A DNA stretch of 64,000 nt from a virus. Every line of letters begins with the position of its first letter. Position 1 is the stretch's first letter. Positions 14,505-58,245 of the stretch are shown one piece after another. Made by a program: the position numbers and the translations under genes. Under the pieces are notes generated by a model. It did not search any database and had not been told where the DNA came from. It saw only the letters and a list, made by a program, of their open reading frames with translations. The stretch lies in the IMG/VR virus record IMGVR_UViG_3300046697_000300, positions 1-64,000 of that record; one strand, written 5' to 3'.

Positions 14505-14552
14505 CTCTTCCCCCGCCCCGCTCGATCTTCCTGACTATCTACTACCGCTGCG

Positions 14553-14768: not shown

Positions 14769-14771
14769 GGG

Positions 14772-14945: not shown

Positions 14946-15155
14946 TGATCCTCCCAGCCAATTTCAGCAACCTTGCCCCACGTCGCATCGCCATCCTCTG
15001 CGCAAGCTCCGCTGGAATCCTTGGTCTGCATCCTCCCCGGCTCTTGCGTCGCGCAGGCGGGGATGGAAGTGGCGGAGGCTCTTCCCTCGTGACCATCTCC
15101 CAGAGGAACAGCGGATCGGTCTCCCTAATCCGCCGCATCTCCGCGCGCATACCTA

Positions 15156-15668: not shown

Positions 15669-15686
15669 GTATTCTGCCTTGTTTGC

Positions 15687-16019: not shown

Positions 16020-16069
16020 ACCTGAATCCCCGTTAAATTTAATGTCTACCTCGGTAACAGCGACGTTAG

Positions 16070-18589: not shown

Positions 18590-18606
18590 GTTCCGCCCTT
18601 TCAAAA

Positions 18607-18879
18607 CTACTTAGGTTTCGCCGGCTCCGCCGGTTTCGCCGCCTTGGCTGCCGCGGCATCCTCCGCCGCGATCCGGTCCAGCCAATGCTGGCACTCCTGA
18701 ATTGCGCCGGCGATTGCCTGCACGTTAGCGATGGCCTGCTGTTGCTGCTGTTGTAGCTCGAGCAGCCGCCGCTCAATGTCTTCGCGCTTGACGACTGAGG
18801 CCCCCGTCGGCGCTGCCGGCGCTGGAGCCGCCGGCTTTGCCTCCCCCCGTACTCGTATTTCACTGAAGTCTTCCACCAC
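18607..18879 (-). CDS. hypothetical coiled-coil protein with a Q6 run
   Basis: 90-aa ORF, GTG start, overlaps the upstream gene end by 20 nt. Confidence 0.5.
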   Translation of the reverse strand: MVEDFSEIRVRGEAKPAAPAPAAPTGASVVKREDIERRLLELQQQQQQAIANVQAIAGAIQECQHWLDRIAAEDAAAAKAAKPAEPAKPK

Positions 18880-30822: not shown

Positions 30823-31991
30823 TTCAAAGCCTCCAGGTAGTCCGCCCACGCGGCTAGCATTTGTTTGCGCTCGGCGCCGAACAGCGCCCGGTTGTAGGTG
30901 CCTCTCACGCCGAGCGGCGTGTGATTCATGGCCTTCTCGATCCAGTCGGCATTGTAGCCGCGCTCGTTCAAGTGCGTCGAGCCGGTGCGGCGCAGATCGT
31001 GGGGACAAAAATGCGGCATGCCCCAGTCGACGCGCGAGATGGCTTTGTTAAGCGCTGCCGCGGGCAGCGGCTGCGTCGTCGAATTATACTGCGGCAGCAC
31101 GAACGGCGACTCGCCGGCCAGCGTTTTAAGGTGCTGAAACAGGCCGGCGGCGCGCGGGCTTAGATAAAAAATGTGCTCGGTCCCCATCTTCGAGAGCTCG
31201 GCCGGCAGCTCCCAGGTGGCCTTCTCAAAGTGGACGTGCTCCCAGCGCGCCAGGCGCAGTTCGCTCTTGCGGCAGAGGGTCAGGAGCATAATCTCGAGCG
31301 CCACCGCCAGCCGCGGCGGCCTCAGCGCCGGCAGTTTTTTGAAGAACAGTTTCAGCTCCTCTTCGCTGAGATAGCGTATGCGCGAGCGGTGCTGCGTGAC
31401 GTAGCGCAGCGGCGTCATGTCGACCGGGTTACGGGGTAGAACGCCACAGGATTTCGCGTAGTCGAAAAGCCGCTTTAGCAGGTGGCGGAGGGCCGCGGCC
31501 GCTTCTGGCTTGCCGTCGTCGCGGCGCTTGAAAATCATCTTCTGGATGTCCCAGGGGTCGACCACGCACATCGGCTGGCGGCCGAGTTTTGGGTAAACGT
31601 CGCGTTCCAGATAGCGACTCACCGCGCGCGGATCCTTGCGCACCTTCTCGACGACCTCCTTCACAAACCGGCGGCCGAACTCGCGGACCGTCACGCGCTG
31701 GTTCCTCAGGAGCCTCTCCTTGCGGATCGTGTCCGACGGCCGCTCGCCGCGAATCACGATTTCCTCGAACGAAGCGCGGCGTTTCCGGGCAGCCTCAAGC
31801 TTCACCCAGGGCCATCTGGCAAAGGTCACGGCCTCGTCGCGGCCGTCGATCGAATAGCGGTAAACCCACATTCGCCGGCCTGTCGGATGGCACCGGAGCC
31901 AGAGGCCGCCGCCGTCGGCAAGCCAGTAAGGCCTGTCTTTATTGGCTAATTCGTGCAGCTTGGTCTCTGTCAAATTGCCAGCCGGTGACAC
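30819..31991 (-). CDS. int: tyrosine recombinase / phage integrase (P4-type, N-terminal arm-binding domain)
   Basis: YWLADGGGLWLRCHPTGRRMWVYRY N-domain. Catalytic contexts LLTLCRKSELRLARWEHV (Arg), HDLRRTGSTHL (HxxR) and VRGTYNR (Tyr). Confidence 0.9.
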   Translation of the reverse strand: MSPAGNLTETKLHELANKDRPYWLADGGGLWLRCHPTGRRMWVYRYSIDGRDEAVTFARWPWVKLEAARKRRASFEEIVIRGERPSDTIRKERLLRNQRVTVREFGRRFVKEVVEKVRKDPRAVSRYLERDVYPKLGRQPMCVVDPWDIQKMIFKRRDDGKPEAAAALRHLLKRLFDYAKSCGVLPRNPVDMTPLRYVTQHRSRIRYLSEEELKLFFKKLPALRPPRLAVALEIMLLTLCRKSELRLARWEHVHFEKATWELPAELSKMGTEHIFYLSPRAAGLFQHLKTLAGESPFVLPQYNSTTQPLPAAALNKAISRVDWGMPHFCPHDLRRTGSTHLNERGYNADWIEKAMNHTPLGVRGTYNRALFGAERKQMLAAWADYLEALK

Positions 31992-32131: not shown

Positions 32132-32530
32132 ATGCCAACTCGAAGCGAGTATCAGCCAGTCCCGGTGACGGCAGCCCGTAACGTCGGCGAGATGTTCAGC
32201 AAGGACATCGTCATCATTACCGCGTGGGACGCAGAACACTTAATGCTCCACACAACGACATGGGGCCGCAGGCCTGACGACAATGTTCAGCTGCTGACAG
32301 CTTCGCCTTCCCTGCTTGCGCCTCAATTGCAGATGAGCAGTTATGCCCCCACAGTGGCTGGAGCTAAGGCTTTGGAGAGCGGGGCAGTTCGAGCAGACGC
32401 GGAGTGGCCTGCCGAGGCGATCGTCAATCTCCATCTTCTGGGAAAAGGAGTAGGGTGGGCGCTAGCGATCGAAAGCGCAGCGGCGTTAAGCATTTACGGC
32501 ATCTGGTATCTGTGGCATCTTTGGCTGTAA
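32132..32530 (+). CDS. hypothetical protein with C-terminal TM helix, lower G+C
   Basis: Strong SD AAGGAGGGAG. C-terminal WALAIESAAALSIYGIWYLWHLWL. First gene next to the int/attP spacer, a typical moron position. Confidence 0.6.
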   Translation: MPTRSEYQPVPVTAARNVGEMFSKDIVIITAWDAEHLMLHTTTWGRRPDDNVQLLTASPSLLAPQLQMSSYAPTVAGAKALESGAVRADAEWPAEAIVNLHLLGKGVGWALAIESAAALSIYGIWYLWHLWL

Positions 32531-32625
32531 GGCGCACCGGCCAATGACCTCGTCAACAAGGCCATCACCGAAACCGAAGAATTGATCGGCGAGGTCGACG
32601 AGGCGGTGTGGGAGGGTCAAAAGCT

Positions 32626-34158: not shown

Positions 34159-34506
34159 ATGAGAAACGGAATTTTCACGTTCGCTGGCTGCCTCGTCCTC
34201 ACCGTCGCGCTCGTCGCCGCGCAGGCGCCACCAACGCCACCGCCAGCGGCGCCGCCTGCGGCCCCGGCGGCGGCGCCGCAACCAGCCGAGCCTCCCGGCC
34301 CAGCGCCGCAGCTCACCAGCACAGAAGCCCTCGAGGTCGAGAACCTCACCCTCAAAATGCAACTGCTCAACGGCCAGTTTAACGAACTCCTCACGCAGAT
34401 CAACGGCGAGCATCCCGGCTGGCAGTTCCATCCTGAGCTCAACCGCTTCGTTTACGTCACCCCCCAGCCAGCCCCGGCGCCCGCGGCGAAGGAGCCCAGG
34501 AAGTAA
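34159..34506 (+). CDS. exported Pro/Ala-rich protein (115 aa)
   Basis: TAAGGAG before ATG 34159. Signal peptide MRNGIFTFAGCLVLTVALVAAQA. TAATG coupling to the chaperonin gene. Confidence 0.6.
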   Translation: MRNGIFTFAGCLVLTVALVAAQAPPTPPPAAPPAAPAAAPQPAEPPGPAPQLTSTEALEVENLTLKMQLLNGQFNELLTQINGEHPGWQFHPELNRFVYVTPQPAPAPAAKEPRK

Positions 34507-36266
34507 TGCCCAGACAGATCAAGCACGAAGACGACTGCCGGCAGACGATTCTGCGCGGCATGGACGCGGTCGCCGACCTGGTCGGCTCAACCCTCGGCCC
34601 GCGCGGCCACACGGTCATCATCGGCCAGCCCATCGGCCCGGCCAAGGTCACCAAGGACGGCGTCACCGTGGCCGAGGGCGTCTCGGTTCCCGATCCCTGG
34701 GAGAACGAGGGAGCCAAGCTGATCCAGCAGGCGGCAAGAAAAACCAACACCGAGGCCGGCGACGGCACCACCGCGGCGACCATCCTCACCCGCGCGCTCT
34801 ACCGCGAGGGCATCCGGCAGGTCACCGCCGGGGCCGACTCTCAAGCCCTGGAGCGCGGCATGCGCCTGGCCGTCGCCCGCGTCGTCGAGGAGCTCGGGAA
34901 GATCGCGACGCCCGTGGCCCAGGAAGACCTGACAACGCTCGAGGCCGTCGCAACCGTTGCGGCCAACGGCGACAAGGAGATGGGTTCAGAGATCGCGAAG
35001 GCCGTGCACCACGCAGGCCTCGAGGGCAATTACACGCTCGATCCGTCGCTGACCTCGAAGACCACTTTCGAGATCGCGAAGGGCCTCGAATTCCAGCGCG
35101 GCCTCGACAAGTGGCCACAGTTCATGAACGACCAGCGGGGCATGGCCATCTTTGGCGCCTGCAACATCTTCATCACCGACATGCACCTGATCGAAGTCGA
35201 GCAGGCCGCGGCGCTGCTCCGCAAATACTCTTCGTTCGGCGGCATGGTGCCGCTCTTGATCATCTGCGAAGACGTGAGCCAGGGCGCGCTCCAGGTGCTG
35301 TCGGCAAACAACGGCCGCAGCGTCAACGTATGCCCGGTGCGCGCTCCCGGCTCCGGGCTTGAGAAGAAGGAAATCCTCCAGGACATCGCCATCCTGACCG
35401 GCTCGAGGGCGTTTATGATTGCGCGCGGCGACAAGATCGAGAGCGTCGACAAAGACCACTTCGGCTCGGCCGACCGCGTTCTGGTCACGCCCGTCCGCAC
35501 CACCATCGTCGGCGGCCACGGTCAGGCCGAGCGCGTTGAACTGCGCAAGGACGAACTCAGGGCCAGGATCAAAGACGCCGAGACTCCCGAGTACGGCCGG
35601 GCGCAGCTCGAGCGGCGGCTGGCCATGATCTCGGCCAAGATCGCCATCATCAAACTCGGCGCCGGCGTCAACTCCAAACTGCTCGAAAAGCGTGACCGCG
35701 CCGAGGACTCGCTCAACGCGACCCTGGGCGCGCTCAAGGAGGGCATCGTCCCCGGCGGCGGCGTGGCGCTGATTCGTACGCTGCCAGGCCTGGGCGAACT
35801 GATCCAGACCATGGCCGGCGACGAGAAGATCGGCGCGCAGGTGGTAGCCTCGGCCCTCACCGTGCCGCTGGCCACGCTCGCCAAAAACGCCGGGGCCAAA
35901 CCCGACGTCGTCGTCCAGCAGGTCATCGAGATGCCCCTGGCCAAGCGTCTCGAATTTGACGACGCACTGGCCCAGGCAAAGCCCGGCATGGCCGAACCGG
36001 ACGGCGACGTTTACCCGCAGGGTACCGGACGGCTTGACTTTTCCGGCTCCGGCTTCGGCTACAACGCGGCCAGGGACTGCTACGAGCACCTGCCGGCCGC
36101 CGGCATCATCGATCCGGCCAAGGTGGTGCGGCTCGCGCTCGAGAACGCAGTCGAGCTTTCAGGCTTGCTCATCACCGCCTCGGGCGGCGTCGTCGAGGTG
36201 CCGGATCCAGCGCAGCTCGCGGCGATGGTTGCAGCCCGCCAGGCTGCCCAGGGAGGCCGTCCATGA
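34506..36266 (+). CDS. groL: GroEL-type (Cpn60) chaperonin, phage-encoded
   Basis: LGPRGHTVII, VTKDGVTVAEGV, AGDGTTAATILT and C-terminal GIIDPAKVVRLALENAVELSGLLITA align with canonical GroEL motifs. No GGM tail. ~35-aa insertion near the C-terminus. Confidence 0.9.
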   Translation: MPRQIKHEDDCRQTILRGMDAVADLVGSTLGPRGHTVIIGQPIGPAKVTKDGVTVAEGVSVPDPWENEGAKLIQQAARKTNTEAGDGTTAATILTRALYREGIRQVTAGADSQALERGMRLAVARVVEELGKIATPVAQEDLTTLEAVATVAANGDKEMGSEIAKAVHHAGLEGNYTLDPSLTSKTTFEIAKGLEFQRGLDKWPQFMNDQRGMAIFGACNIFITDMHLIEVEQAAALLRKYSSFGGMVPLLIICEDVSQGALQVLSANNGRSVNVCPVRAPGSGLEKKEILQDIAILTGSRAFMIARGDKIESVDKDHFGSADRVLVTPVRTTIVGGHGQAERVELRKDELRARIKDAETPEYGRAQLERRLAMISAKIAIIKLGAGVNSKLLEKRDRAEDSLNATLGALKEGIVPGGGVALIRTLPGLGELIQTMAGDEKIGAQVVASALTVPLATLAKNAGAKPDVVVQQVIEMPLAKRLEFDDALAQAKPGMAEPDGDVYPQGTGRLDFSGSGFGYNAARDCYEHLPAAGIIDPAKVVRLALENAVELSGLLITASGGVVEVPDPAQLAAMVAARQAAQGGRP

Positions 36267-44477: not shown

Positions 44478-47400
44478 TTAGTAGTCGATCGGCACGCCGT
44501 GCTGGCGCAGCGTGTTCTCAAGCTCAGTAGCCGCCGGCACGTTCGAGCTGGCCAGCGTCTGGATCTTCCGGTCGGCCTTGGCTTCCATGATGTCAGAGAG
44601 TTCCGCGCGCTCGCTCGCGTCGGCTGCGTTCCACACCTTGACCGCGTCGTCGAAGTTGCTCATGTGCTTCACGTCGTACTGCAGGTCACTCATCGAGCCG
44701 CGCTCCTGGACCCTGGCAGCGTCCTGCGGCGAGATCTTGCCCGTCGACACCAGGTTCCAGAGGTCAGTCTGCGAGATCTGGCCGTCCCTGAATTTCTGGC
44801 TGAGTTGCACATTGCGCCGGCTTTCGGCCTGCCGCTCCTCGCTCTCCGGCTCGTCGGGTATCCCCCTAACGTAGAGGTCATGCGCCTTCTTCTCGAGGGG
44901 CGTGTGGTAGTTCGCCATGTTCGCGCCGAGCGAGGTGAAGAAGCTCTCGATCAGGCTCTGGTCGTTTGTGGTGAAGAGTTTCTGGACGGGGATCGGCGTG
45001 GTCTGGGTCGCGTAGCTCTTAGCAAAATGCGTCTTTGTTTCCTGCCGGCCAAAGTTGTCGCGGCCGGTGATGAACTCGATCGTCGGCCGTATCGTGACCG
45101 GGTTGAGCCGGTTATAGGTCCACTCAGCCGGGCTCGCCACCAGGTGGGCGATGTCCGAGTAAACGGTGCGGACCGAGATCGCCTTGTTGCCCCAGGCCGG
45201 GCCCCAGCTCTTTGGCGTGACGACGGTAAAGGCATCCTGCGGATCCCAATGCGCTCCGCGGCGCCAGCCCTGCTCGTGATTAAGGGCAGCGTTGATGATG
45301 CGGCATGCGGCATACATCAGCGCCGCGCCGCGCAACAGGGCCAGCCGCTGCTCCGAGCCAAACTTCGAGAAACCCTGCGCCACAAACTGCGCCCGGGCCT
45401 TGGTGAAGTCGGGCGAGAACAAGAGCAGGTGTTCGGCAGCCTTGAAGGTCCGGTTATTCATCACCTCAAGGTGCCGGAAGAACGCCGGATCCTGGCCGGA
45501 AAACGCAGCGTTGGTCTGGGCCGCGCTCATCAGGCCGATCTCGTCGCGGGTGAGCTTGGCCTGGGCGCCGGGCCTTCCGCCGCCGTAGCGCTCAAGGTTG
45601 CGCTCGTAGATGATCTTGTACGACTTGGCTTTGAGCCGCGGGATCCAGTCGCGGAAGAGGTACCTGTGATAGGCGCCCATCCCCGGCAGGCCGCTCAACA
45701 CGCCCTCGGGGTCGATCTCGACCATCTTGAGGCCGTGGCCGACGCCGTCCTGGACGGTCTTATCCTTGGTCAGGTCCTCGAGCGAGTCCAGCCGGAACGG
45801 GTTGATGAAGTGATCGAGCGCGTGCATGCCGAGCTGCACCTGGTGGAACCCTGAGCCGTAGAGGATCACGCCCTTCACGGTCGACCCGGCCTTGCCGACC
45901 GCCCGCGCCGTGCCCTTGATGATCTTCACGGGCAGGTGGTCTGAGGGTGACTCGAACCAACTGCGGGTGACGAGATCCGAGACCCGGCCGGCATACTTCG
46001 GGTGGATGACGATGTCGCCCTTCATGGCCAATTGCTTGCCCTCGGGCACCGGGAACCTGGGATCTTCGGGGGTAAACAGTTTCGCCTGCTCCGCCGGGTC
46101 CATCTTGGCATAGCCGGGTGCGAGCACCTCGCGGTCCTGGTCGTCGAGTTCCCAGGTAAAGTTGCGCAACTGGCTGGCCGGGATGCGCACGTAGTCGTCA
46201 ACGTTCTCGGGCCGCTTTGGCTGCTTCATGATCCGGGTCTCGCCGGCCGTGTTCTTGTCGACGATGGCCCAGCCTGAGCGGCTCTCAAGCGCAGCCAGAG
46301 GCCGGCCATCCTCGGGGTCCACCCCATACAAAAGCGATCGCACAAAGCCGCGGGTCATAAAGGTTTTGGTGAACGCATCGTGATACGACGATAAGATCCG
46401 GCCGGCGTCCATGGTCTTCGGGTCTTCGCCGCCCATGATCGCGTCGAAGAAACTCGGCCAAACCCGGCGCTTGAGAAAACTGGGGTTCGACATTAACTCA
46501 GAGAAGTCCGTCACCGCGCGCAACTTGGCCAGCGTCTCAGGATCAGTGGCAAAGGTGTGCATGGCGTAGTGTGACGCGCCCGCCGGCAGCAGGCCAGCGT
46601 CGGTCAGGATCTTCAACTGCTGCTGGTAGTAGCGGGTGTGCGCGTCGGCCACCTGCTGCTGTTCCGGGGTTAGATTGAGCGCATCTTTGAAGGCCTGGGC
46701 GTTGCGCTTGCCGCCGGGTTTTGACTCGAAGGCTACCGAGCCCGCGCCGGCTGCCCAGCGCTTGAGTGTTTGCGGGTCGCCACCGGCTTCGCCGTAGGCG
46801 GTCATCGCGTTGCGCTCGCGCTCGCTCGGCGCCACGCGCTTCAATTCCTTCTGGTAGCGATCGACGTCCATCGCGGCGCGCAGCTCGGCCTTGCGCAGGT
46901 CGCCCAGATTCTGGAAGTAGTCGGTCCACGGCGCCGGCTGTCCCCAACTGTCCCAGGCACCTGCTGCCGCGCCCTTGACGCCACCCCAGGCCTTTTCGAT
47001 CGCGGTGCCGGTCTTGGCCACGGCGGCGACGCCGGCGTCGCTCGCGGCCTCTACACGCTCGCCCATGCCCATCTTGCGGGCCGGCATCCCCTTGAGGTCA
47101 GCGATCGCGTCCTCAAGGCTCTTGCCGGTATCATGGCCGCCGGTCGTAACCGTGGTGGGGGTCGCCCGTGGCGCCTTGAGCCCGGCAAGTCGGTCGTGAA
47201 ACTCCTCCTCGCTCTCGTCGCCGCGTTTGGCGGTGAGGTCTTCCGACACTGGCGTGCGCTTGAAGAGCGGCTGGCCCTCGGTCATCACGCTCTCGCGCAT
47301 GGCGTCGGTGACCGGCAGGTAGGGCACGGTCACAGCGCCCAGTTCGCGGTTCAGCCGGTCGGCTTCGGCCTGGGCGGCGTCGCGGTCGTAATAGTGCATG

Positions 47401-50400
47401 TCCTTGGCGGGCGTCAAACCCTCCGACGAGATCACGCTGAAATCCGGCTGGCCGTCGCGCGGCGGTCCTTGCGTCACGCGCCATTTGTTATCGGGCAGGC
47501 TCGTCTCGACGACCTTGGCGCCGAACGGCTTGCCGATTTTGTTGGCGGTCTGGGGCACGATCTTGTCGTAGAAATTCTTCATCCCCTCGCCGCCGACCTT
47601 GAGGTCGAGGCCAGAGAAGGTTTGGCGGCCTACGGTCCCGGCCGCGGGCGCTCCCGCCACGATCTTTGCCGCCAGGTCCTTGCCCACGTGGTCTGCCAGT
47701 TTCTCCTCGGACACATCCAGTTCGACCTCGCGCCAGCGCCCGTCGGGCATGCGCGCTGTCAGATCGTACTTGCCATTGCCAAAGCCGATCGCGTCCAAAC
47801 TCTCGATTTGTCTGCTCAGGTCGTATCGTGCCGCCTGCTGCTCACCCGGCGTCCAACTGATGCCGTCGTAGCCGTTCTCGGCGGCGTAGCGGATCATCCG
47901 CTTCATCAGCAGCTCCGGCCAGGTCTTCTTGAAAGGCGCGTTCGGCACGCCGCGATTCCCGTTTTCATTCAGCCTACGCTGCGCCTCGTCGTACTCGCGG
48001 GTGATCGCCGCGAGCCTTGGGTCATCTCTCTCCGCGCCGCGGAAATCAGAGCGAACGATGTTTGTCTGCTCGATTGCGTCTTTTGCGCTAGAGGCAGCAA
48101 CCGTGTACACGATCCGGCCGTTGACCGAAACCTCCCAATCTCCCGGCGCTCCTGCCGCCGGCTCCGCGCTGAATTTAGCGAATCCGCGCAATTGCTTCCA
48201 GAGGTCGTTGCGCCGTAGCTCAAGCGCCCTTACTTCCTCGGCCGGAAGAGAGCGCAGATACCCTTCCGTGCGCCCTCTCTGGTGCCAGTCGCTCTGCAAC
48301 TCCTCTAGGTGCAGCAGCTTTTCGCCGTTCGGGCCGGTGCGGTCGTTGAAGCGCACATGGCCGATGACGTTCGGCTCTTCCCAGTGCGGCGTGCGGAAAT
48401 CGACGGCGTGGGTGTCGCTCCGGCTCTTCGTGTCGGCGACGTACTGCATCGCCCGGCCAGCACTGCTCATGCCGTAATTCTGCTTGGAGATCATGAACTG
48501 TTGGCCCGGCGCGTCGATCGCCCAATGTGTCGGCGTCGTGTCCTTCTCGTTGAGCTTCAGCTCAGAGAGATCGTAGCGCGAACTGCCTTGCGACGGCAGT
48601 GTGAGCAGTAGTTCGCGGTAGTTCTCGCCCCCGGGCAGCGTGTAGCCCTCAAATTTTACGGGGCCGGCGAGGCGCGGTTCCAGCGCCTTAACCTCGCGCT
48701 GGTGCGGTGTTCCGCCTTTCTCGACCTCCTGTATTCCTATATCGTTCGCGGCCAGCGTCTCGCGCAGTTCCTGCGGCTTGACCGGCGCGGTCCCCTTGGC
48801 GCGCAGCAGGTCGCCCAGGCCAGTCCACTCGAGCTCTTCCGGCTTCACGCCGTTGTTTTCCAGCATGCGCAGGGCGGCGTTGGCCGGCATCGGGCCCTGC
48901 ATCTTCTGGCCGATCAGCCGCTCGCTCTTGAGGTAGAACGTCGGCGCTTTTTCCAGTCCCTGTTCCCTGTTCCCTGTTCCCTGTCTTTTGAAGAGCGACC
49001 CCTGCGGGCTGGCGTCCGACCCTCTAAACAGCGGCGCGTTGCGCTCCATCTCGCCGGCCTTCTTGTCGATGTCGGCGAGCGGCGTCCGCAGTTGCTCCTC
49101 CATCGCCTGCTTCTCGGCCGCGGTCCTGGCCTCCTCAGCCTCCTTGACCGCGTCCTCCATGCCCGGGAAGGCGATCGGCTCGCCCTGGAGCGGAACAAAG
49201 CCCGGTGGCCGGCGGCGCTGGAAGAGGCCGCCCTGGCCGGCAGCCTCTAGTTCTGCTCGCGTCGGCGCTGTTCCCTCAGCGCCTGGTTGAAGGCCTGCAC
49301 CACCGGGCTCTCGGCTCCCCGCCGTATCAGGCGCGAGCCCTTGCCGAGGGGTTGCTTCGCGTACTGCTTCCCGGTTCGGTTGAGCCACTCCTCGGCCTTC
49401 TGCCCCTGCTCCTGCTCGAGCTGTTTGCTGTCCATACTCCCTCGCTCTCTTGATTACTTCGGCCAGTTTCGGGTCGGCGGCCGGCATCCCGTCGAGGACC
49501 GCCGGGCCCTTCTCGTCGATCGCGGCTTCGAGCGCCGCCTGCGCCAGGTCCTGCTGCTCGGTTCCCTTCCAGTCAATATCGGGGTCGCCCGCGAGCGCCT
49601 TCCCGACGATTTCCGCGGCGACCTGTGGGCCGTCGGCTTCCTTGTAGAGTTCCCTCAGTTTTGCCAGAACTCGCTCAAAGACCGGCATCGCGGCAAGCTC
49701 TTCCATGGTATCCGACCCGTAAAGCCCCGACCGGATATACCAGCGATGCCAGAGCTCCTCGCGCAACGTCGCTGGGTCGTAGTCGCCGCGAATCAGCAGC
49801 AGCGAACCGTCGGCGTCGCGGCCCTGGTCGAGTGCGAGCGCCAGCGCCTTGAGCGACTCTGCGGCCTGCCGCATGCCGGGCCGTACCCGCACGTTCGACT
49901 CAAACGATCGCACCCTGGCCACCATGCGCGAGGCCTCGGCGGCCACGAGATAAACCCCCTCGAAACGGTCCTCCGGAAAAGCGATCTTCCGGATGGCTTC
50001 GTAAGCCGGCGCGTTCATCACATGCACCGGCGCCCCGTCGACTTCCATGCGGTCGACTTTAGCCCTGGCGGCATTGTCCCAGGTCAGCCGGTTCTCGGCC
50101 GCAGAGAGCTCGCGCTGGTACCGTCCCCTGGCTATAAGTCGATTCTGCGTCTCTTCCGCGGTTTCGCCGGGGAGGCGACCGGCAGGTCGAGCGCCAGCGG
50201 GTACATCTCCAGAAGCTCCTCCGGCGTTGCGTCCCTGGTCGGGAACCAGATCTCCGGCTTCTGTCCGGGCCGGTACCGCACCTCGGGCGGCAGTATCACC
50301 TGCGGCTTGCCGAGTGGCTTCACTCGCTCGAGCGGCTGGCGTAGCAGCCGGCGGCGCCTCCTGAATCCGTGCCCCAGTTTCGGCATCTTCTCCCCCTACA

Positions 50401-53400
50401 ATCTGGCCCGTGTTTGGCTCGACCTGCGTCGCGCGGTCGTCGTACAGTTTCACCATCTTCGGGTCTTTGATGTTCGTGATCGGCAGCACCTGGCCCAGGT
50501 GTTGCTGGCTCCAGGCCTCGATCGACGCGCGGGCGACTCCGGTTGGGTCGTCGGCCACGCGCGCCGTAAAGAACCTGACATTCTTGACTAGCTTGCCGTC
50601 GACCCGCTCGCCATTGGCGAGGATGTTCCTGATCCGGTCGACCATCTCCGGAATCGGTTTCCCGATGAACTCTTTGCCTTTGAACTCGGTGTAGTGGGCG
50701 AGCGTCTTGTCGAGATCGACCCCGATCCACTCGGCCGCCGGATCCACTTTTGGCGGCTGCACCCGCTCAAGGTCGGTCGGCTTCACAGCCTCGCGGAGCT
50801 TGCCGTCAGAGAGCCGGACCCTGGCACGCACCAGCCCGGTTGAGGCCGGCGTCACGTATTGCACCACGCCGGCGGTGCCGTCCCTCAATCGGACGACGTC
50901 GCCCTTGGCTATCTCTCCGGGGCCTCGCTCTGCGGCGGCACTACCGGCTCCTGCTGCGCCGGCGCCTCGCCCTCCTTGGGTTGCGTCAGGCCGAACCTGC
51001 TGGCTGCCTGCCGGTACAGTTCGAGGCCCCTCAGCACCCGCTCCTTCGCCGCGCTTGTAAGCCTGGGCCAGCGCGGTCCTTGCGGCGCTATAGGCTCTGC
51101 GTTTGATCTCACTCGCGTTCCCCTTTCCCTCGGCCAGTTCCGTGGCGGCCGCGTTAAGGATGTCGTCGACCGTCCCGGTGCGCGTACTCAGCCGGTCATA
51201 AATTTCCTGGTCCTGGTCCTGCGCCGCGGTCTCAGCGGTCTTCGCGTTCTCGGCCGCGTTGATCTTGTTCTGGCCCTTTTCAAGCGTTGCCGCGCGGCCC
51301 TTGTCGGCGACCGTGGCAAAGAGCCTGCGCTCCCTGCCAATCTCGTCGCGGATATAGGCCGAGATCTCCGCCTTTTCGAGCGCCAGGTTGCGCCGCATCT
51401 CGACCGCTCCGAAGAGCGTCTGCTGCGTCTCGGCGTGTTCGCCGGCACCCGACGCCATCCTGGCTAACTCGGCTACCGTATCGTCACTTACGCGACGGCC
51501 CCGCATCTCCTGGCGCTCGATCAGCTTGAGAATTGCTTCCTGCTGCTCTGGGACCGCCGTGGCGTTGCCGATCTCGACGGCACGGCCGATGCGCAACTGC
51601 CCGCTGACGACCTTGTCGAAGAGTGAACTGTGGAGCCGCGACAGCGCCAGGCCGTTCGCGGCCGTGGCTTCACCCAAGGATATGCCCTTTTCTTTCAGAT
51701 CCGCAAGCCCAATTCCGCTATCGCGGAAGAACTTCGCTGCGTCAACTGCGGTTCCGCGGCCCTCGGCGATGTTCTGGAGCGCGGCCGTGGCCCGGGCTTC
51801 CTCGGCCGTTGTGGCCGGCAGGTGCAGCGCGTTTAGCCGGGGCACCTCGTTTTCCTTGGCGTGCTGGGCCCGGTGGTGGCCGTTGACGACGTAGAGTTTA
51901 CCGTTTGCGGGATCTCGCCAGACAGAGATCACGCCGGCCAGGTCCGGGTTCCATTTCTGGCCCTTGAGCAGGTTGGTTGTCCCCGATGCGTCGGTATTGA
52001 GTTTGTATTGGAAGCGCTTCGGATCGAAGGCTATCTCGGAGGTCTTGACCGAGCCTACTTCGCCCGGGCCTGGTTCGCGTCCTCGGGCGCCAGGCGCGCT
52101 TTCCACTTCGTTTTTGGGTTTAACTTCAACGCCTGGTCCAAGCTCACCACGGGCGCGCTCTCCCTGACTCTCGCGCTCAGACTTGTGGGCTTTGAGGGCG
52201 GATTCTGCGGTTTTGAGATCGGTGCCTGTGCCATAACTGAAATCGACTCCCTTCAACTGTACCTGTGATCCGGCCGGCTCGATGCCGTCGAAAACCTGCG
52301 CTCTGAGAATTTCCCTTGCCTTTTCCAGTTTCGCTTCAATGTCTTTTGGCGAGTCACCGCGGTAAAGGAACTCGTCGCCCTTGTCGTGGTACGCATCGAG
52401 GCCAGCCGCCCTCAGGGCCTCGGCCTTCGCGCGCAGCAGCTCGTCGCCGGCGGCGTAGCCAAAACGGTCATTGAAGGCCTTGAGCCCGTCTGCGTCGCTC
52501 ATCGCGACCGCGGCGGCCGGCTGCTCGCGCTGCTTCTCTTCAAAGGCCCGTCGGTTGGGCAGGCCGGTCTTCTCGCTGGTCAGCAGTTCGCGCCGCATCT
52601 CTTCGGGCGCCATCTCAGCCACACGCTGCCGGCGGCCAGCGTCGACGCGCCGGTCTGGAGTTCCCTTGAGCGGGATCTCGGTTTCATTCCCCTTACTGTC
52701 GGTAACCGTGATCGAGTTGACCTTGAACGGCTTGCCTGCTGTGACCTGGTTGCCCACGTACTTCTGAGCGGCCTCGGGCTTCACGTAGGCGATCGTCGCG
52801 TGGGGTTTGTAGTCGGCGAAGTTTGACCGGGCAAAGTCGCCATGCTGCTCGATCTCGCGGTTGAGCCGGGCAAGCTCGGTGCTCTCGACGGGCGCATGCA
52901 GCGGCACGGCGCCATCAGAGTGAACCGAAGGCGGAAAGGCTGCGACAGGCCCCAGCGTCGCATCGAACGGGGTCTGCGACTCAATGAAGAAGCGCAACCC
53001 CGGGGTTAGGTCATGTTGCAGGCCGTAGCGCACCGTAACATGGTTGCCGCCCACATCCTTGCCCTGGCCGGCAAGGTCGGCCTCGGGAATCGCGGCGCGG
53101 GCCTGCTCGATCGCCTGGGCGGCATCCGAACCAGCCGGGATGTTCGAGTGTGTGGTGCCGAACTCGTGCTCGGTCGCCGTCTCCTGCTGGCGCGCCTGAA
53201 AGTCCTGCCAGTGTTGATCGTTCCGCTGGCGCAGCTCGGCCGCGGCATCCTTGTCGCCGTCGCGCGCCTTCTCGTAGAGGCTGTGGTCTTTATTGGCGGC
53301 GTCGGCCACTTCGCGCGGCAGAATCTGCACCTCGTGCGACACGTCGGACCCGGGCGCGCGCACGTTGAGCGTGTAGGAGTGGAACCCATGATCCTCGTCG

Positions 53401-55496
53401 CCCTGGGCAAAGTTGTCCTGCTCGGCGTGCACTTCGAAGCGTTGGCGAAGCGCCGCGATCGTCGCCGGCACGTCGGCCGGGGAGTCGACGGCGATGCGGA
53501 ATCCGGAGTAGTCGCGTGCCGTGGCCGACGACTGGCCTTCGTCCTCGATCTTTTCCTCGAGCCGGTCGGCATCCTTCTCGGGTCTGGCTCCTGCTAACTT
53601 GGCCCCCGGTACATCACTTAGCGCCGTTTTGATGGTCGCCTTGACCTCGGGATGCTCCTCGGTTGCGCGCGCCTGAATCGCTTCGGGATTGTTGCCCTCC
53701 TGGAGCACGGGCCGCTCGGTCTCTGGCTCGACCGCGCCAATTGGTTTGACTGGTTCGCCGGCAGTGCCCGCAGGCGCTGCCGGGTTATTCGGCACCGATG
53801 TTCCCCGTGGAACATTCTCGCCGCCGCCGGCGGTGAGCTCTGCCGGCGCTGCCGGGGTTGGCGGCGCTGCAGCCGGCGCTGGTTGGCCGTAAGTGGCCTC
53901 TCTCGCGCCTACTCTCACCTTGGCGGTTGGCGTCCCCGGCACCACGCGGCTGCCCTCCTCGGCGCTGTAGCTGCCCGTGGGGCCCTGCTCCCGATAGGCT
54001 GGCCTGTAGCCGACCTGGCCCTCTATGGGTCCGGCACCAGCGCGCAGGCCGTGCTCCCCGTAGGCTCCTTCATACGTGCGCACGCCAGCCAGGTGCGCGC
54101 CCGTCAGTAAGGCAAACAGAGCATCAGCAGGGGCCGCCGTCCAGGCCTGGGTGGCTGTGATCACATCGCCCTTTTTATAGGCGTCGTAACCCAGGTTGAA
54201 CTGCTGCACTGCTTCCTTGGCCATGCCGGCGGCAAAACCCATACCGCCAAGGATCCTCACTGCCCGCGGCACCGACGATGATCCAAGCGCATACATCAGG
54301 GCAAGATTTTCCGGGGTTGTCAGCCCGTCCGCAACCTGTCTCGCGCCACCGCCCATGCCGCGCAGGACGTTCGCCACCGAGAGGCCGCGGTCTTGAATCT
54401 TTGCAATCTGATCAGGGTCGCCGGACTTGTAAGTGTCGATCGCTTCGCGCAGCGGATCAGTTGCGTTTTCCATGTTCTTCTGGCGCTCTGCCTGGTCCGG
54501 AGGCATCCCCGCAGAGATCAGAAGCCGCTTGTACTCTTCTGGCGTTGTCCGCCCAAACATGGGTGATTTTTTGTCGAGCGCGTCGAGCATGTCCACGGCC
54601 CGCGTGAGCAGGGGTTTTCCGGTTATGGGATTAGCGGCTAGAGCGGCCGGAATCCCCGCGACGTTCGTCCCGATATTGCGCACCGTCGCTGTAGCCTGTT
54701 TGGCGTTGTCCTCCGCCCTGTCCATCTCCCTACCGAGCGTGCCGTCACCGCTTGGGTAGGGTAGTTCGCGGATCGCATCCCAGGCGCGGCCAAAAAGTCC
54801 TTTCGTTGGCGCGGCCTCGAGCGCTCCCGGGTGGGCCACTGCGCGGGCCGGTTTGAGCGGCGTTGCGGTTGTCGCTTCGAATGGCTCTCTAGGAAGCGCC
54901 GCCTCCTGCTGAATCTGCTCCTGCATGTTGCGCGGCGGTGCGCTGGCTGGTGCCCGGGAAAAGCCCTCTGCCGCCGGCCCGGCAAGTTCCATCTTTTCAG
55001 GTATAAGGGGTTTCAGCGGCACGAGTTCAGTCGGCAGCGTCGCGCGGTTGATGTCGATCTGTTGTGCCTGCCGTTCGGCGGTGAAAGCCGGCAACACCTT
55101 GTAGCCCTTGGGCACGTCCTCGTAGTCGGCGGCCTCCTGCGGGGTCTCCATCTCCGCGCCTGGCTGGCGTGTCAGGCGCAACCCTGGAGGCATGGCCGCC
55201 GGTGTCGGCGGCTTGTACTGGCCGCCAGGGAGAAACTGCGGCTCTAAGATGCTGGTCTGCCGCGGCGCCGGAGTGATCGAGTCGACTGCGGGTCTCTGGC
55301 CTTGGGGCTGGGCTGGCTGCGCTGGCGCCTGGGGAGCTGCGGCGGGCGGAGCCTGGGCCGGTGCCGCCGGTGGCAGCACCTTGTAGCCGTCGGGCACGTC
55401 GGAATACTGCTGCGGCTGGGTGTCCGATCCAGCCGGCGGCAGCACCTTATAGCCCTGGGGCACGTCCGAATACTGCTGTTGGTCCTGGTCGTCCAT
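44478..55496 (-). CDS. giant multidomain (polyvalent-type) protein, 3672 aa
   Basis: Uninterrupted ORF. Start set at ATG 55496 (TAATG overlap with the upstream stop). Domains read by motif: RelA/SpoT-like, 2H phosphoesterase, GGDEF-like, ParB-like, HAD-like and an EELQSDWHQ module (see findings). Confidence 0.85.
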   Translation of the reverse strand: MDDQDQQQYSDVPQGYKVLPPAGSDTQPQQYSDVPDGYKVLPPAAPAQAPPAAAPQAPAQPAQPQGQRPAVDSITPAPRQTSILEPQFLPGGQYKPPTPAAMPPGLRLTRQPGAEMETPQEAADYEDVPKGYKVLPAFTAERQAQQIDINRATLPTELVPLKPLIPEKMELAGPAAEGFSRAPASAPPRNMQEQIQQEAALPREPFEATTATPLKPARAVAHPGALEAAPTKGLFGRAWDAIRELPYPSGDGTLGREMDRAEDNAKQATATVRNIGTNVAGIPAALAANPITGKPLLTRAVDMLDALDKKSPMFGRTTPEEYKRLLISAGMPPDQAERQKNMENATDPLREAIDTYKSGDPDQIAKIQDRGLSVANVLRGMGGGARQVADGLTTPENLALMYALGSSSVPRAVRILGGMGFAAGMAKEAVQQFNLGYDAYKKGDVITATQAWTAAPADALFALLTGAHLAGVRTYEGAYGEHGLRAGAGPIEGQVGYRPAYREQGPTGSYSAEEGSRVVPGTPTAKVRVGAREATYGQPAPAAAPPTPAAPAELTAGGGENVPRGTSVPNNPAAPAGTAGEPVKPIGAVEPETERPVLQEGNNPEAIQARATEEHPEVKATIKTALSDVPGAKLAGARPEKDADRLEEKIEDEGQSSATARDYSGFRIAVDSPADVPATIAALRQRFEVHAEQDNFAQGDEDHGFHSYTLNVRAPGSDVSHEVQILPREVADAANKDHSLYEKARDGDKDAAAELRQRNDQHWQDFQARQQETATEHEFGTTHSNIPAGSDAAQAIEQARAAIPEADLAGQGKDVGGNHVTVRYGLQHDLTPGLRFFIESQTPFDATLGPVAAFPPSVHSDGAVPLHAPVESTELARLNREIEQHGDFARSNFADYKPHATIAYVKPEAAQKYVGNQVTAGKPFKVNSITVTDSKGNETEIPLKGTPDRRVDAGRRQRVAEMAPEEMRRELLTSEKTGLPNRRAFEEKQREQPAAAVAMSDADGLKAFNDRFGYAAGDELLRAKAEALRAAGLDAYHDKGDEFLYRGDSPKDIEAKLEKAREILRAQVFDGIEPAGSQVQLKGVDFSYGTGTDLKTAESALKAHKSERESQGERARGELGPGVEVKPKNEVESAPGARGREPGPGEVGSVKTSEIAFDPKRFQYKLNTDASGTTNLLKGQKWNPDLAGVISVWRDPANGKLYVVNGHHRAQHAKENEVPRLNALHLPATTAEEARATAALQNIAEGRGTAVDAAKFFRDSGIGLADLKEKGISLGEATAANGLALSRLHSSLFDKVVSGQLRIGRAVEIGNATAVPEQQEAILKLIERQEMRGRRVSDDTVAELARMASGAGEHAETQQTLFGAVEMRRNLALEKAEISAYIRDEIGRERRLFATVADKGRAATLEKGQNKINAAENAKTAETAAQDQDQEIYDRLSTRTGTVDDILNAAATELAEGKGNASEIKRRAYSAARTALAQAYKRGEGAGAEGPRTVPAGSQQVRPDATQGGRGAGAAGAGSAAAERGPGEIAKGDVVRLRDGTAGVVQYVTPASTGLVRARVRLSDGKLREAVKPTDLERVQPPKVDPAAEWIGVDLDKTLAHYTEFKGKEFIGKPIPEMVDRIRNILANGERVDGKLVKNVRFFTARVADDPTGVARASIEAWSQQHLGQVLPITNIKDPKMVKLYDDRATQVEPNTGQIVGGEDAETGARIQEAPPAATPAARASEATRQAAGDTAARGAVPARTEAGDLVPDQGRNAGGASGDVPAGARPAGRLPGETAEETQNRLIARGRYQRELSAAENRLTWDNAARAKVDRMEVDGAPVHVMNAPAYEAIRKIAFPEDRFEGVYLVAAEASRMVARVRSFESNVRVRPGMRQAAESLKALALALDQGRDADGSLLLIRGDYDPATLREELWHRWYIRSGLYGSDTMEELAAMPVFERVLAKLRELYKEADGPQVAAEIVGKALAGDPDIDWKGTEQQDLAQAALEAAIDEKGPAVLDGMPAADPKLAEVIKRAREYGQQTARAGAGAEGRGVAQPNREAVREATPRQGLAPDTAGSREPGGAGLQPGAEGTAPTRAELEAAGQGGLFQRRRPPGFVPLQGEPIAFPGMEDAVKEAEEARTAAEKQAMEEQLRTPLADIDKKAGEMERNAPLFRGSDASPQGSLFKRQGTGNREQGLEKAPTFYLKSERLIGQKMQGPMPANAALRMLENNGVKPEELEWTGLGDLLRAKGTAPVKPQELRETLAANDIGIQEVEKGGTPHQREVKALEPRLAGPVKFEGYTLPGGENYRELLLTLPSQGSSRYDLSELKLNEKDTTPTHWAIDAPGQQFMISKQNYGMSSAGRAMQYVADTKSRSDTHAVDFRTPHWEEPNVIGHVRFNDRTGPNGEKLLHLEELQSDWHQRGRTEGYLRSLPAEEVRALELRRNDLWKQLRGFAKFSAEPAAGAPGDWEVSVNGRIVYTVAASSAKDAIEQTNIVRSDFRGAERDDPRLAAITREYDEAQRRLNENGNRGVPNAPFKKTWPELLMKRMIRYAAENGYDGISWTPGEQQAARYDLSRQIESLDAIGFGNGKYDLTARMPDGRWREVELDVSEEKLADHVGKDLAAKIVAGAPAAGTVGRQTFSGLDLKVGGEGMKNFYDKIVPQTANKIGKPFGAKVVETSLPDNKWRVTQGPPRDGQPDFSVISSEGLTPAKDMHYYDRDAAQAEADRLNRELGAVTVPYLPVTDAMRESVMTEGQPLFKRTPVSEDLTAKRGDESEEEFHDRLAGLKAPRATPTTVTTGGHDTGKSLEDAIADLKGMPARKMGMGERVEAASDAGVAAVAKTGTAIEKAWGGVKGAAAGAWDSWGQPAPWTDYFQNLGDLRKAELRAAMDVDRYQKELKRVAPSERERNAMTAYGEAGGDPQTLKRWAAGAGSVAFESKPGGKRNAQAFKDALNLTPEQQQVADAHTRYYQQQLKILTDAGLLPAGASHYAMHTFATDPETLAKLRAVTDFSELMSNPSFLKRRVWPSFFDAIMGGEDPKTMDAGRILSSYHDAFTKTFMTRGFVRSLLYGVDPEDGRPLAALESRSGWAIVDKNTAGETRIMKQPKRPENVDDYVRIPASQLRNFTWELDDQDREVLAPGYAKMDPAEQAKLFTPEDPRFPVPEGKQLAMKGDIVIHPKYAGRVSDLVTRSWFESPSDHLPVKIIKGTARAVGKAGSTVKGVILYGSGFHQVQLGMHALDHFINPFRLDSLEDLTKDKTVQDGVGHGLKMVEIDPEGVLSGLPGMGAYHRYLFRDWIPRLKAKSYKIIYERNLERYGGGRPGAQAKLTRDEIGLMSAAQTNAAFSGQDPAFFRHLEVMNNRTFKAAEHLLLFSPDFTKARAQFVAQGFSKFGSEQRLALLRGAALMYAACRIINAALNHEQGWRRGAHWDPQDAFTVVTPKSWGPAWGNKAISVRTVYSDIAHLVASPAEWTYNRLNPVTIRPTIEFITGRDNFGRQETKTHFAKSYATQTTPIPVQKLFTTNDQSLIESFFTSLGANMANYHTPLEKKAHDLYVRGIPDEPESEERQAESRRNVQLSQKFRDGQISQTDLWNLVSTGKISPQDAARVQERGSMSDLQYDVKHMSNFDDAVKVWNAADASERAELSDIMEAKADRKIQTLASSNVPAATELENTLRQHGVPIDY
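49832..49866. repeat. 35-nt segment identical to 55653-55687
   Basis: gtgcgagcgccagcgccttgagcgactctgcggcc read at both places. Here it encodes AAESLKALALAL in the giant gene's high-GC3 frame. Confidence 0.85.
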
Positions 55497-57193
55497 TATT
55501 GCCCGGGTCGCGACTCGGCGACCCATTTACCGCCTCGCTTTACTTCAATGTGACCGTCGGGTGCCTGCCGGCGCAGCCCCTCGGGGGCGGGCTGCCGCGG
55601 TGCCTTGCGGCTCGTCGCGGCGGCCGCGGCCGGCGACTGCACCAGTTGGCCCGTGCGAGCGCCAGCGCCTTGAGCGACTCTGCGGCCCGCGGCGGCCGCG
55701 GCCGGCGACTGCACCAGTTGGCCCTGCGGGTCGATCATCCAGCCGTCCTTCGCTAGCTTCGCGTTCGCGTCCTGGCGCAACTTTGTGACCTTGGCGTCGT
55801 ACTCGGTGCCGGTGATTGAATCGAACTTTCCCGGCACCGTGGTGCGATAGTTGCCGTTTGGCTGTCGCTTCCAGGTGCTGGTGAACTCCGTGATCTTGCT
55901 CATGCCGTCGTCGGCCGCAGCCTTGACAGTATCCGGCGGCGTTGCGCTTGGCGGCTCCTTCTCCCGGCCGCCGGCCACCTGGTTGATCTGGTTGAGGTCG
56001 TCGAGCGTCGGTTGCTTGCCGCGGTTGGCCGGGTCGCGCTCCCATGCCCGCAGGGCCTGCGCCCGGGCCGTCTCCTCGGCGGTGGCCTGCCGTGGGTCGA
56101 AAAGCCGGCCGTTGGCGCGGTAGAAAGCGGCGTACTGGCCCTTGAGGCCGAGCCTGGTCGCTTCAGCATCCCACTGTTTGTACTTGGCTGCCCACTCGGC
56201 ATTGGTCTCGGCCGTCTTGACGGCTGCCTTTGCCTCGGGGGTGTTCTGGTCGGCCGTGGCTTGGGTCTTCACCAGGTCCGCCGCCGTGGTGCCGACGTGT
56301 GCATAGTCGGGCGCAACGGTCTGGAGATCCTTGCCCTTGTCCCGAATTGCCGAGGTCGCCGCGTTGAAGCGCGCGATGATGTCGGCCTTGCGCTGCTGGT
56401 CCTGGGCGAGTGTTCCCTGCCGCAGTTGCTCGTCCTCGGTGTAGTCCTTGTTTGGCGAGCCGTAGGGCGTCGCCTGATCGGGGTGGCCGCCAAAGCCCTC
56501 GGCGAAGTTCTTGAACACGCGGCCGACTGTGCCCCCGAAACTATCCTTGTAAAGCGGTTTGCCAGTCACCGGATCTGTCGCCCTGGGATTGGTGGGGATT
56601 GAATCGGTCTCGATTTTCGTGTCGATCGCCGTGGTGTCGGGCGCTGCGGGTTCGGCCTGGAAGGCTTGCCGATTCTGGTCGGCGATCGAGAGCTCGCCCT
56701 CGAGACCCTTTTGGGCGTAGCCTGCCCAAGGTGCCGCGCCAGCCGGTGCGGGCGCCGCGGGGTTCGATGGGTTCGGATTGGGTGCGGCCGGGTCGGGCGC
56801 CGTGGCTGCTGGTCCCAGCGTCTCTGGCGGCGGGGCGGCCGGCTGGCCGGGCTGGGGCCTCGTGTGGAGTACGGGCCTGGCCGGCGAGCCTGGAGGATCC
56901 TGAAAGCGTGGATCCGGATCGGCAGCCGCTGGCTGCGGAGCAGCAGCCGGAGCGGCCGGTTCGGGGGTCGGCGGAGGGGTTGCCTGCGCAATCTGCACGG
57001 CCTGCGCGCTGGCGTTCCTTTCATCGCTGGCGGCCTTATACGGGCCCGAGAGTTGGCTCAATGCGGCGGAGGCCTTGCCCGGGTTTGCGCGTAGTTCGTC
57101 TGGGTCGTATCCGGCCGCCGCGAGCGGCGCAGAACTCCGGCTCATTGAGGCCAGGTCGCTGCCGTCTGCCCAGTCTGTCCAGTCGTCAGCCAT
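55496..57193 (-). CDS. hypothetical virion-operon protein (565 aa) with Pro/Ala-rich centre
   Basis: ATG 57193 (TGATG overlap) inside track ORF 55496..57292. Confidence 0.65.
   Translation of the reverse strand: MADDWTDWADGSDLASMSRSSAPLAAAGYDPDELRANPGKASAALSQLSGPYKAASDERNASAQAVQIAQATPPPTPEPAAPAAAPQPAAADPDPRFQDPPGSPARPVLHTRPQPGQPAAPPPETLGPAATAPDPAAPNPNPSNPAAPAPAGAAPWAGYAQKGLEGELSIADQNRQAFQAEPAAPDTTAIDTKIETDSIPTNPRATDPVTGKPLYKDSFGGTVGRVFKNFAEGFGGHPDQATPYGSPNKDYTEDEQLRQGTLAQDQQRKADIIARFNAATSAIRDKGKDLQTVAPDYAHVGTTAADLVKTQATADQNTPEAKAAVKTAETNAEWAAKYKQWDAEATRLGLKGQYAAFYRANGRLFDPRQATAEETARAQALRAWERDPANRGKQPTLDDLNQINQVAGGREKEPPSATPPDTVKAAADDGMSKITEFTSTWKRQPNGNYRTTVPGKFDSITGTEYDAKVTKLRQDANAKLAKDGWMIDPQGQLVQSPAAAAAGRRVAQGAGARTGQLVQSPAAAAATSRKAPRQPAPEGLRRQAPDGHIEVKRGGKWVAESRPGQ
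55617..55723. repeat. 35-nt direct repeat (55617-55651, 55689-55723) flanking a 37-nt insert
   Basis: Both copies read gcggcggccgcggccggcgactgcaccagttggcc. Period 72 nt, in frame in the 565-aa gene (GQLVQSPAAAAA x2). Confidence 0.85.
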
Positions 57194-58245
57194 CAGCGTG
57201 CCCCTTTCGAGTCGGCGAGAACTCTTGCGATGAACCGGCCGCCGGCTGTTTTTATGACCGCCTTTTGTCCTGCGTGCCACTCGAGGAGGCACTTTAAAAC
57301 GTGGTTAGAAATGTCGCGCTCGGTGAAGCCTTCGGCAAACGGCTTACCCCGCACCACCTTCTCGAGGTTCCAGTACGATCGCCAGAGGTTTGAGCCCTCG
57401 GCGCCGATCAGCCACAGCGAAGCGCTGCCCAGGCCGGCCTCAAAGACATGCCGCAGCACCCACGAAACTGCCCTCGACCGCGGCATCCACTGGTCCGCAA
57501 TCCGCTCCCCCCAGCGCGCGTAGGCGGCCGCGACGACCCGGCCGTGCCAGGTCCTGCTGAATTTGAAGGCCAGCCAGAGCCGGAAGAGCACCGTGCGCCG
57601 GCTGCCCCACCCATCCCAGAGCCGCGCCGCAATCCAGCATCCACCGACTGCGGTCGCGATGCCTCCTGCGGCTGATTTTCCGAGGCCTTGGGCGAGAGCT
57701 CCGAAGCCCGAAACGGCCGCGTTGCCGAGTTCATCCAGGAAGCTAGGTTCCTCTGCCGCCTTTTGGCTGGTCTCGAGCGAGGTGTTGCCCGCCACGGCCT
57801 GCTGGCCGCTCAATGTCGTCTCCAGGCTTGCCGGCACCTCGCTCGCCTGGAGCGTGCCTTTGTTGTAGGCGGCTTCGTTTGAGATCCGCTCGGCGTTCTG
57901 CTGCGCCTGTTGGCCCGAGAGCGTGCGCTCGTTGGCCTGCTCATCGGCCTGGGTCGCAGCGATCGCCGGCGCTGCGTTCTGTCCCGTGCGCACGGCTGCC
58001 CCCTGCATGGCCTGGCCGGCCGCCGCGGCAGCCGCGTCCGAAGTATTGGCGAGCACCTTGTTCTGCGAGGTCTCGAACTCTCCGCCGGCTTTGTAGGGGT
58101 TGGCCGAGGCATATTGGGAGAGTTGGTTTTCGTAGTCCTGCACACCCGTCTGAGCGCCGGTGTAGCTCTGCTGGGCGTTCTGGTTGAACGTCTGGTTCTG
58201 CTGCTCGGCGGTCGACAAAACCTGCGCTTCCTGGCCTCTGCTCAT
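57193..58245 (-). CDS. hypothetical Gln/Ala-rich protein with central hydrophobic segment (internal-virion-protein-like)
   Basis: 350-aa ORF with AAAGGAA before the ATG. GIATAVGGCWIAARLW hydrophobic region. Confidence 0.65.
   Translation of the reverse strand: MSRGQEAQVLSTAEQQNQTFNQNAQQSYTGAQTGVQDYENQLSQYASANPYKAGGEFETSQNKVLANTSDAAAAAAGQAMQGAAVRTGQNAAPAIAATQADEQANERTLSGQQAQQNAERISNEAAYNKGTLQASEVPASLETTLSGQQAVAGNTSLETSQKAAEEPSFLDELGNAAVSGFGALAQGLGKSAAGGIATAVGGCWIAARLWDGWGSRRTVLFRLWLAFKFSRTWHGRVVAAAYARWGERIADQWMPRSRAVSWVLRHVFEAGLGSASLWLIGAEGSNLWRSYWNLEKVVRGKPFAEGFTERDISNHVLKCLLEWHAGQKAVIKTAGGRFIARVLADSKGAR

Follow-up and report, generated by a model that had tools for sequence, protein, structure and literature searches.

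A 35-bp self-derived insertion flanked by a 37-bp target duplication in a gene of an uncultured soil-type phage, with off-target Cas1-Cas2 integration as a possible origin

The enzyme known to insert DNA fragments of 30-40 bp with a stagger of 24-40 bp is Cas1-Cas2 of the CRISPR systems, and the CRISPR repeat is duplicated each time a spacer is added. The duplications left by transposases and casposases are much shorter. Repeats of 36-37 bp are common in CRISPR types I-D, I-G and III, and adaptation associated with type III needs no protospacer-adjacent motif (PAM). Off-target integration by Cas1-Cas2 has been documented in vivo and proposed as a route to new CRISPR loci, as far as the work of Nivala, Shipman and Church (2018) is summarised in PMC7054753 and PMC6698737. 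In neo-CRISPR cases, a single spacer-sized fragment lies at a non-CRISPR site between exact repeat-sized duplications, and the junctions show neither homology nor loss of bases; these cases come from bacterial and archaeal chromosomes with known systems. Here we analysed a unit of the same layout in a phage. It lies in a stretch of 64,000 nucleotides (positions 1 to 64,000 of IMG/VR virus record IMGVR_UViG_3300046697_000300), the whole of which is referred to as the window. The unit resembles the neo-CRISPR cases in all these respects. Unlike the published cases, it sits in a protein-coding gene of a phage and its fragment was taken from that phage itself, and no Cas1-Cas2, PAM or leader-like motif has been tied to it.

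The unit is located in the 3' part of a gene on the minus strand (55496..57193) that encodes a protein of 565 amino acids (aa). A repeat search of the window detected a perfect pair of 37-nt direct repeats at 55616-55652 (left copy, CGCGGCGGCCGCGGCCGGCGACTGCACCAGTTGGCCC) and 55688-55724 (right copy), with a start-to-start spacing of 72. Between them lie exactly 35 nt, at 55653-55687. The first-pass annotation of this DNA had reported a 35-mer occurring twice (55617-55651 and 55689-55723) around an insert of 37 nt; the two occurrences were recovered by reading the sequence and by a pattern search (two matches in the window, none expected from 100 shuffles), and the repeat-insert-repeat layout stands, but the repeat is one base longer at either end and the lengths are therefore 37-35-37 instead of 35-37-35. 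All 35 nt of the insert are identical, on the same strand, to positions 49832-49866 within a giant gene that adjoins the 565-aa gene, as had been claimed. Among all exact repeats on both strands of the window, the 37-nt and 35-nt pairs stand alone: the next longest exact repeats measure 21, 21 and 20 nt, and no other closely spaced exact direct repeat of at least 16 nt was found within the window.

Translation bore out what had been said of the coding consequences. The whole unit is 72 nt long, keeps the reading frame, adds 24 codons at about residues 490-513 and duplicates GQLVQSPAAAAA. The insert is read in different frames in the two genes (mod-3 offset 2 in the giant gene and 1 in the 565-aa gene), giving AAESLKALALA in the former and GRRVAQGAGAR(T) in the latter; all three frames are open.

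The gene exists in two natural alleles. The exact 565-aa protein is recorded on seven contigs, of which five were fetched (L001-L005), each from a different metagenome sample of the Joint Genome Institute (JGI). Four of these five are 100% identical to the window, whereas L004 differs at 14 sites, six of them common to insert-free strains. The sharing of these six single-nucleotide polymorphisms (SNPs) places the insert allele on at least two haplotype backgrounds. Searching at the protein level returned a sister allele (P0001) of 541 aa, 24 residues shorter, which was read on eight JGI and Logan contigs. In the insert-free contigs L006-L010 the 37-mer occurs once, the insert is missing at the site and the 35-mer is found in the giant gene only. 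Alignment of the DNA over 55458-57767 showed no difference between the two alleles at any aligned base apart from a clean gap of 72 nt, and the protein cluster at 90% identity holds these two alleles only.

Comparison with relatives, which the first-pass annotation had proposed in order to count one repeat against two, gave a polarity. Eight homologues of 41-96% identity all carry a single GQLV motif, in a segment that is otherwise poorly conserved, indicating that the single-copy state is ancestral and the 37-35-37 state derived. By the same evidence we rejected the reverse polarity, in which the 541-aa form would be a deletion derivative. Since the ancestral allele carries one 37-mer, the duplication was made by the event itself, as a target-site duplication; the earlier suggestion of an insertion between direct repeats that were already present was not borne out. 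Neither the 37-mers nor the insert have yet diverged from their sources, which argues that the event is recent. Some single-copy alleles on near-identical backgrounds, such as that of L010, could nonetheless be precise revertants.

The donor side gave a matching picture. The 35-mer is found in the giant gene of strains both with and without the insert, and it encodes part of RPGMRQAAESLKALALALDQ, a motif that is likewise conserved in the giant proteins of L013-L015, relatives with 43-74% identity; between 45.5 and 50.5 kb the window and L006 differ by no SNP. The donor segment (49832..49866), flanked by ...GGTCGA and TGCCGC..., is thus native to the giant gene by its sequence and its conservation, and the proposal holds that the segment originated in the giant gene and that the 565-aa gene carries the secondary copy. 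Together, the before and after alleles, which differ by the 72-nt gap, document the DNA-level event linking the two genes that the first-pass annotation had put forward: a recent, still-polymorphic insertion of a 35-bp piece of the giant gene into the 3' part of the neighbouring 565-aa gene, where it is flanked by a formerly single-copy stretch of 37 bp. We hold this with little remaining doubt.

Two readings would remove the event altogether, and both had been named beforehand as what would refute it. One is an artefact of assembly or of chimeric reads. The insert-bearing allele was found in JGI assemblies only and in none of the Logan assemblies, as such an artefact might be; it was, however, recovered in independent assemblies of five samples, one of them with a different haplotype, and repeat and insert share no k-mer able to mislead an assembly graph. 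The other is an ordinary, ancient coding repeat, which is at odds with the single-copy state of all eight homologues. To either we give scarcely any credence.

The junctions were then compared, after rebuilding the ancestral allele, each with its alternative continuation. Microhomology was 0 nt on both sides of both junctions, whichever strand was taken as nascent. As 0 nt is common by chance (54% of random junctions in this genome), two blunt junctions fit homology-independent joining and not the priming of a polymerase on a new template. Short matches lay close at hand and were not used: GCGGCC at the end of the insert, recurring inside the 37-mer, TGCGGC 4 nt upstream of the 37-mer, and GGCCCTG, which is present at the target and again 10 nt upstream of the source. 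An internal contrast is provided by the only other sizeable indel near the unit, about 530 bp away, where L006-L010 carry 39 nt (13 codons, PLKGANSPAAGLP) that the window lacks at 55089. This indel sits between 7-nt direct repeats (CGGCAAC), the classic signature of slippage, and sets off the blunt junctions of the 72-bp insertion.

These data bear on the template-switch or patch-repair origin that had been suggested for the unit. In a replicative double template switch, of the kind described as fork stalling and template switching or microhomology-mediated break-induced replication (FoSTeS/MMBIR), synthesis would have exited after the 37-mer, copied 35 nt at a site 5.8 kb away and returned 37 nt behind the point of exit. 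Template switching is known to leave small tandem duplications whose junctions contain templated inserts, and phage replication is rich in recombination. The unit has this very form, a short stretch duplicated in tandem around an insert copied from the same strand of the same genome 5.8 kb away, and the strains are visibly mosaic. Priming on the new template would need terminal pairing, yet neither junction offers any, in either direction of synthesis, whereas FoSTeS/MMBIR junctions normally show at least 2 nt of microhomology; the better matches of 6-7 nt nearby were passed over, and the neighbouring 39-nt indel shows how slippage looks in this region, with its 7-nt repeat. A template switch is thus disfavoured, and we consider it unlikely.

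With a 35-bp insert, a 37-bp duplication, no homology and no bases lost or gained, the unit is readily explained by strand transfer at two nicks with a stagger of 37 bp and subsequent filling of the gaps. Joining of broken ends would arrive at the same product. Here a break with 37-nt overhangs would be filled in, by non-homologous end joining (NHEJ) of the Ku/LigD type or by a phage ligase and polymerase, and a stray 35-bp phage fragment captured by blunt ligation, so that the duplication equals the length of the overhang and the junctions lack homology, as in known NHEJ fill-in duplications with their blunt joints. LigD-dependent NHEJ typically fills in 5' overhangs and then ligates the blunt ends, the capture of ectopic fragments at breaks is reported in actinobacteria, and soil bacteria often possess Ku and LigD. 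Several coincidences are required nonetheless: two nicks exactly 37 nt apart, four ends joined without gaining or losing a base, and a free blunt fragment that by chance has the size of a spacer. The scan of phage proteins, which covered 42 open reading frames (ORFs) together with the giant and the 565-aa proteins, returned no Ku, LigD or reverse transcriptase. The combination of a 37-nt stagger with capture of a 35-bp fragment has to be achieved in a phage in which no such enzyme was found, and we judge end joining, too, to be improbable. A product of a diversity-generating retroelement or retron was rejected outright, because the copy is exact and the scanned proteins include no reverse transcriptase.

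The mechanism that we rank first, tentatively and at somewhat less than an even chance, is off-target (neo-CRISPR) integration by a host Cas1-Cas2 into the phage gene, with a prespacer taken from the same phage. The locus shows a single spacer-sized insert and an exact, event-made target duplication with all else identical, and homology-independent junctions at which no base was lost or added. A length of 35 bp is the modal spacer length in a type I-G system (PMC12915315). On this scheme, Cas1-Cas2 would have captured a 35-bp prespacer from the giant gene; the short duplex would have been linked, independently of homology, to a pair of nicks, one on each strand, separated by 37 bp; and filling of the two single-stranded gaps would have duplicated the 37 bp. 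Integration would have hit the phage or prophage genome instead of the host array, and the translated unit would then have spread in the phage population. The unit would be a scar and not a working array, and its precise loss by recombination between the 37-mers is possible and may add to the polymorphism. As the tyrosine integrase described below suggests, the phage may at times reside as a prophage in a cell that has adaptation machinery, and would then be exposed at length to the integrase of its host.

A number of results weigh against this assignment. No independent link of the locus to any CRISPR system was found. The 37-mer matched no Rfam CRISPR-repeat model even at E ≤ 10, and its folding was not unusual (z-scores of about 0 against shuffles). 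The donor flanks read TCGA on one strand and GGCA on the other, which correspond to none of the PAMs considered (TTC, AAG, CC and GTN). Nor do they match the TAT PAM of PMC12915315. Neither strain comparisons over about 55 kb nor relatives yielded a second event of the same geometry, and no sequence in the 90%-identity protein cluster has a different insert at this position. The event is a single one, and other homology-independent routes give the same product; mechanisms beyond those discussed share what probability remains, which we take to be small. The enzyme responsible is not demonstrable from sequence alone.

Off-target integration has to be distinguished from a functional mini-CRISPR array borne by the phage and used with Cas proteins of the host. 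The first-pass annotation had compared the geometry to a one-spacer CRISPR-like unit, and this likeness improved with the corrected lengths: in CRISPR arrays identical repeats of about 23-55 bp surround a unique spacer of similar size, as the 37-35-37 nt do here. Viruses with mini-arrays of one or two spacers are known (Medvedeva et al. 2019, PMC6858448), and these mini-arrays or solitary repeat units likewise consist of repeat-spacer-repeat in a viral genome devoid of cas genes. Their repeats, however, are of host type, leaders are often present, the units do not code for protein, and the spacers are directed at related viruses and spare the carrier (PMC6858448). The present repeat is the phage's own coding sequence, single-copy in the ancestor; the unit is translated, in frame within the 565-aa ORF and with no leader; and the spacer matches its own carrier perfectly. 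No Cas1, Cas2, Cas4 or other cas domain was present among the scanned proteins. Besides lacking an Rfam match, the repeat occurred in no array of the scanned collections, and neither another copy of the 37-mer core nor an alternative insert was found in collections of viral or metagenome contigs, a weak negative given that these collections do not contain this phage. The in-frame coding, the missing Rfam match and cas genes and the self-match leave a functional array effectively refuted.

The product of the recipient gene gave few clues to its function. The start of the 565-aa protein at 57193 is backed by an N-terminus (MADDWTDWADG) conserved in homologues, but the protein has no Pfam, PHROG or PDB match, and the description of its gene as a virion gene is therefore unverified. 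An AlphaFold model was poor (mean predicted local distance difference test score, pLDDT, of 53), too low for a fold search. In this model insert residues 491-515 have pLDDT values below 50, with the caveat that the underlying alignment is gapped at the insert region, and they follow directly on the best-folded module, residues 421-489 (block means 71-86). The modelled position of the insert is consistent with a tolerant linker. Because the frame is kept and the 24 residues are added in a poorly conserved, probably flexible segment, the 72-bp change would be tolerated.

The donor giant gene (44478..55496, minus strand) encodes 3672 aa from an ATG at 55496; the ORF list extends it to 55526 (3682 aa). 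Versions in relatives range from 2770 to 3683 aa, and some are called as two split ORFs. At about residues 650-1040 the protein carries, one after another, RelA_SpoT-like, 2'-5' RNA ligase-like and GGDEF-like domains (Pfam, with GGDEF matches in PDB), and from these domains it may be a multi-enzyme of nucleotide signalling or anti-defence. A virion RNA polymerase of N4 type was not detectable in it, despite a terminase distantly like those of N4, HTVC and CRP phages. The N-terminus contains 22-aa tandem repeats, QQYSDVPxGYKVLPP (55372-55466 and 55090-55118; 9414-9508 in L006). Two copies are 90% identical in the window and perfect over 29 nt in L006-L010, a difference that suggests gene conversion between the copies. 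The 29-nt/37-nt repeat of L006-L010 was considered as a second event of the kind described above and rejected, being an old 22-aa protein repeat. Further within the giant gene lies a hypervariable patch, 52092-52357, with 155 differences from L006 in the 500-nt bin 52000-52499; it looks like a swapped cassette and shows mosaic recombination among strains.

The window is nearly the whole genome of an uncultured soil-type phage of about 65 kb (contigs of 64.3-71 kb), and L001 joins its two ends through 1.5 kb that lie outside it. The phage is present in JGI samples 3300050026, 3300037095, 3300037092, 3300048780, 3300037182, 3300048777 and 3300037175 and in the Logan runs SRR12362154 and SRR35913617. 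The large terminase shows 24-29% identity to those of Pelagibacter, Roseobacter, Sinorhizobium and N4-like phages, and no close cultured phage was found at the DNA level. A tyrosine integrase of P4 type is encoded at 30819-31991 on the minus strand (Arm-DNA-bind_3, Phage_int_M and Phage_integrase domains), which suggests a temperate lifestyle. Five short Logan contigs end exactly at 30773, and L019 lacks 32289-32541; these breaks may mark an attachment (att) site or a variable junction. All contigs carrying the integrase proved phage-internal.

A complete IS200/IS605 insertion sequence (IS) with a Y1 TnpA and a TnpB occupies about 12000-13700 (tnpB 12018-13208, minus strand), in an island of low GC content (0.47), and contig Ga0494740_000408 ends at its edge. 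Cutting guided by TnpB and omega-RNA of this element was rejected as a source of the 72-bp insertion, because the IS flanks share at most 10 nt with the target or source sites. The closest TnpB fragments occur in metagenome-assembled genomes of Acidobacteriota (Terracidiphilus, 88% over 59 aa; Sulfotelmatobacter, 56%) and are the sole hint of a host; the protein family of the 565-aa gene was not found in 185,579 species genomes. The whole region 12000-22000 is lower in GC (0.47-0.57) than the remainder (0.65). Three of its ORFs, of 844, 628 and 623 aa, had no PHROG match in individual scans; the neighbouring 359-aa ORF was covered by the pooled scans. This region may hold acquired cargo or genes of tail fibres or defence.

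A chaperonin of GroEL type is encoded at 34506-36266 on the plus strand (PHROG 5725, E = 1e-107; Pfam Cpn60_TCP1). Upstream of its operon, in intergenic DNA, contig L026 (about 1766-1806) has some 39 nt in place of 2 nt of the window at 34049. No other copy of this segment was found in any fetched sequence and it has no flanking duplication, so it too was rejected as a second event. Upstream of the structural block, a more distant relative, L015 (SRR28211888), encodes at positions 508-729 a protein of 73 aa that contains an Acb2/Tad1 hairpin domain; Acb2/Tad1 is a family of sponges acting against the defence systems CBASS and Thoeris. ARAGORN called a 92-nt tRNA-Leu(GAG) at 5177-5268 (plus strand), inside and antisense to a 274-aa ORF (4875-5699), and the call may be a false positive.

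The locus is a rare natural pair of before and after alleles, in which a complex insertion can be read base by base. The kind of event is already known, and the two alleles make this case unusually clean. Should the integration by Cas1-Cas2 prove wrong, the unit would still illustrate cleanly how a phage can capture a fragment of its own DNA independently of homology, with modest importance as a single and probably neutral structural polymorphism. Should it prove right, the case would, although resting on one event, be of interest to specialists in CRISPR and in phage evolution: natural viral genomes, too, would be struck by off-target integration, which is known from experiments in E. coli and from a few cellular genomes. 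CRISPR adaptation would then be a source of insertion mutations and of new in-frame coding sequence in phage and prophage genomes. The length of the duplication would report the repeat length of the host, and such a footprint could link uncultured phages to the CRISPR types of their hosts.

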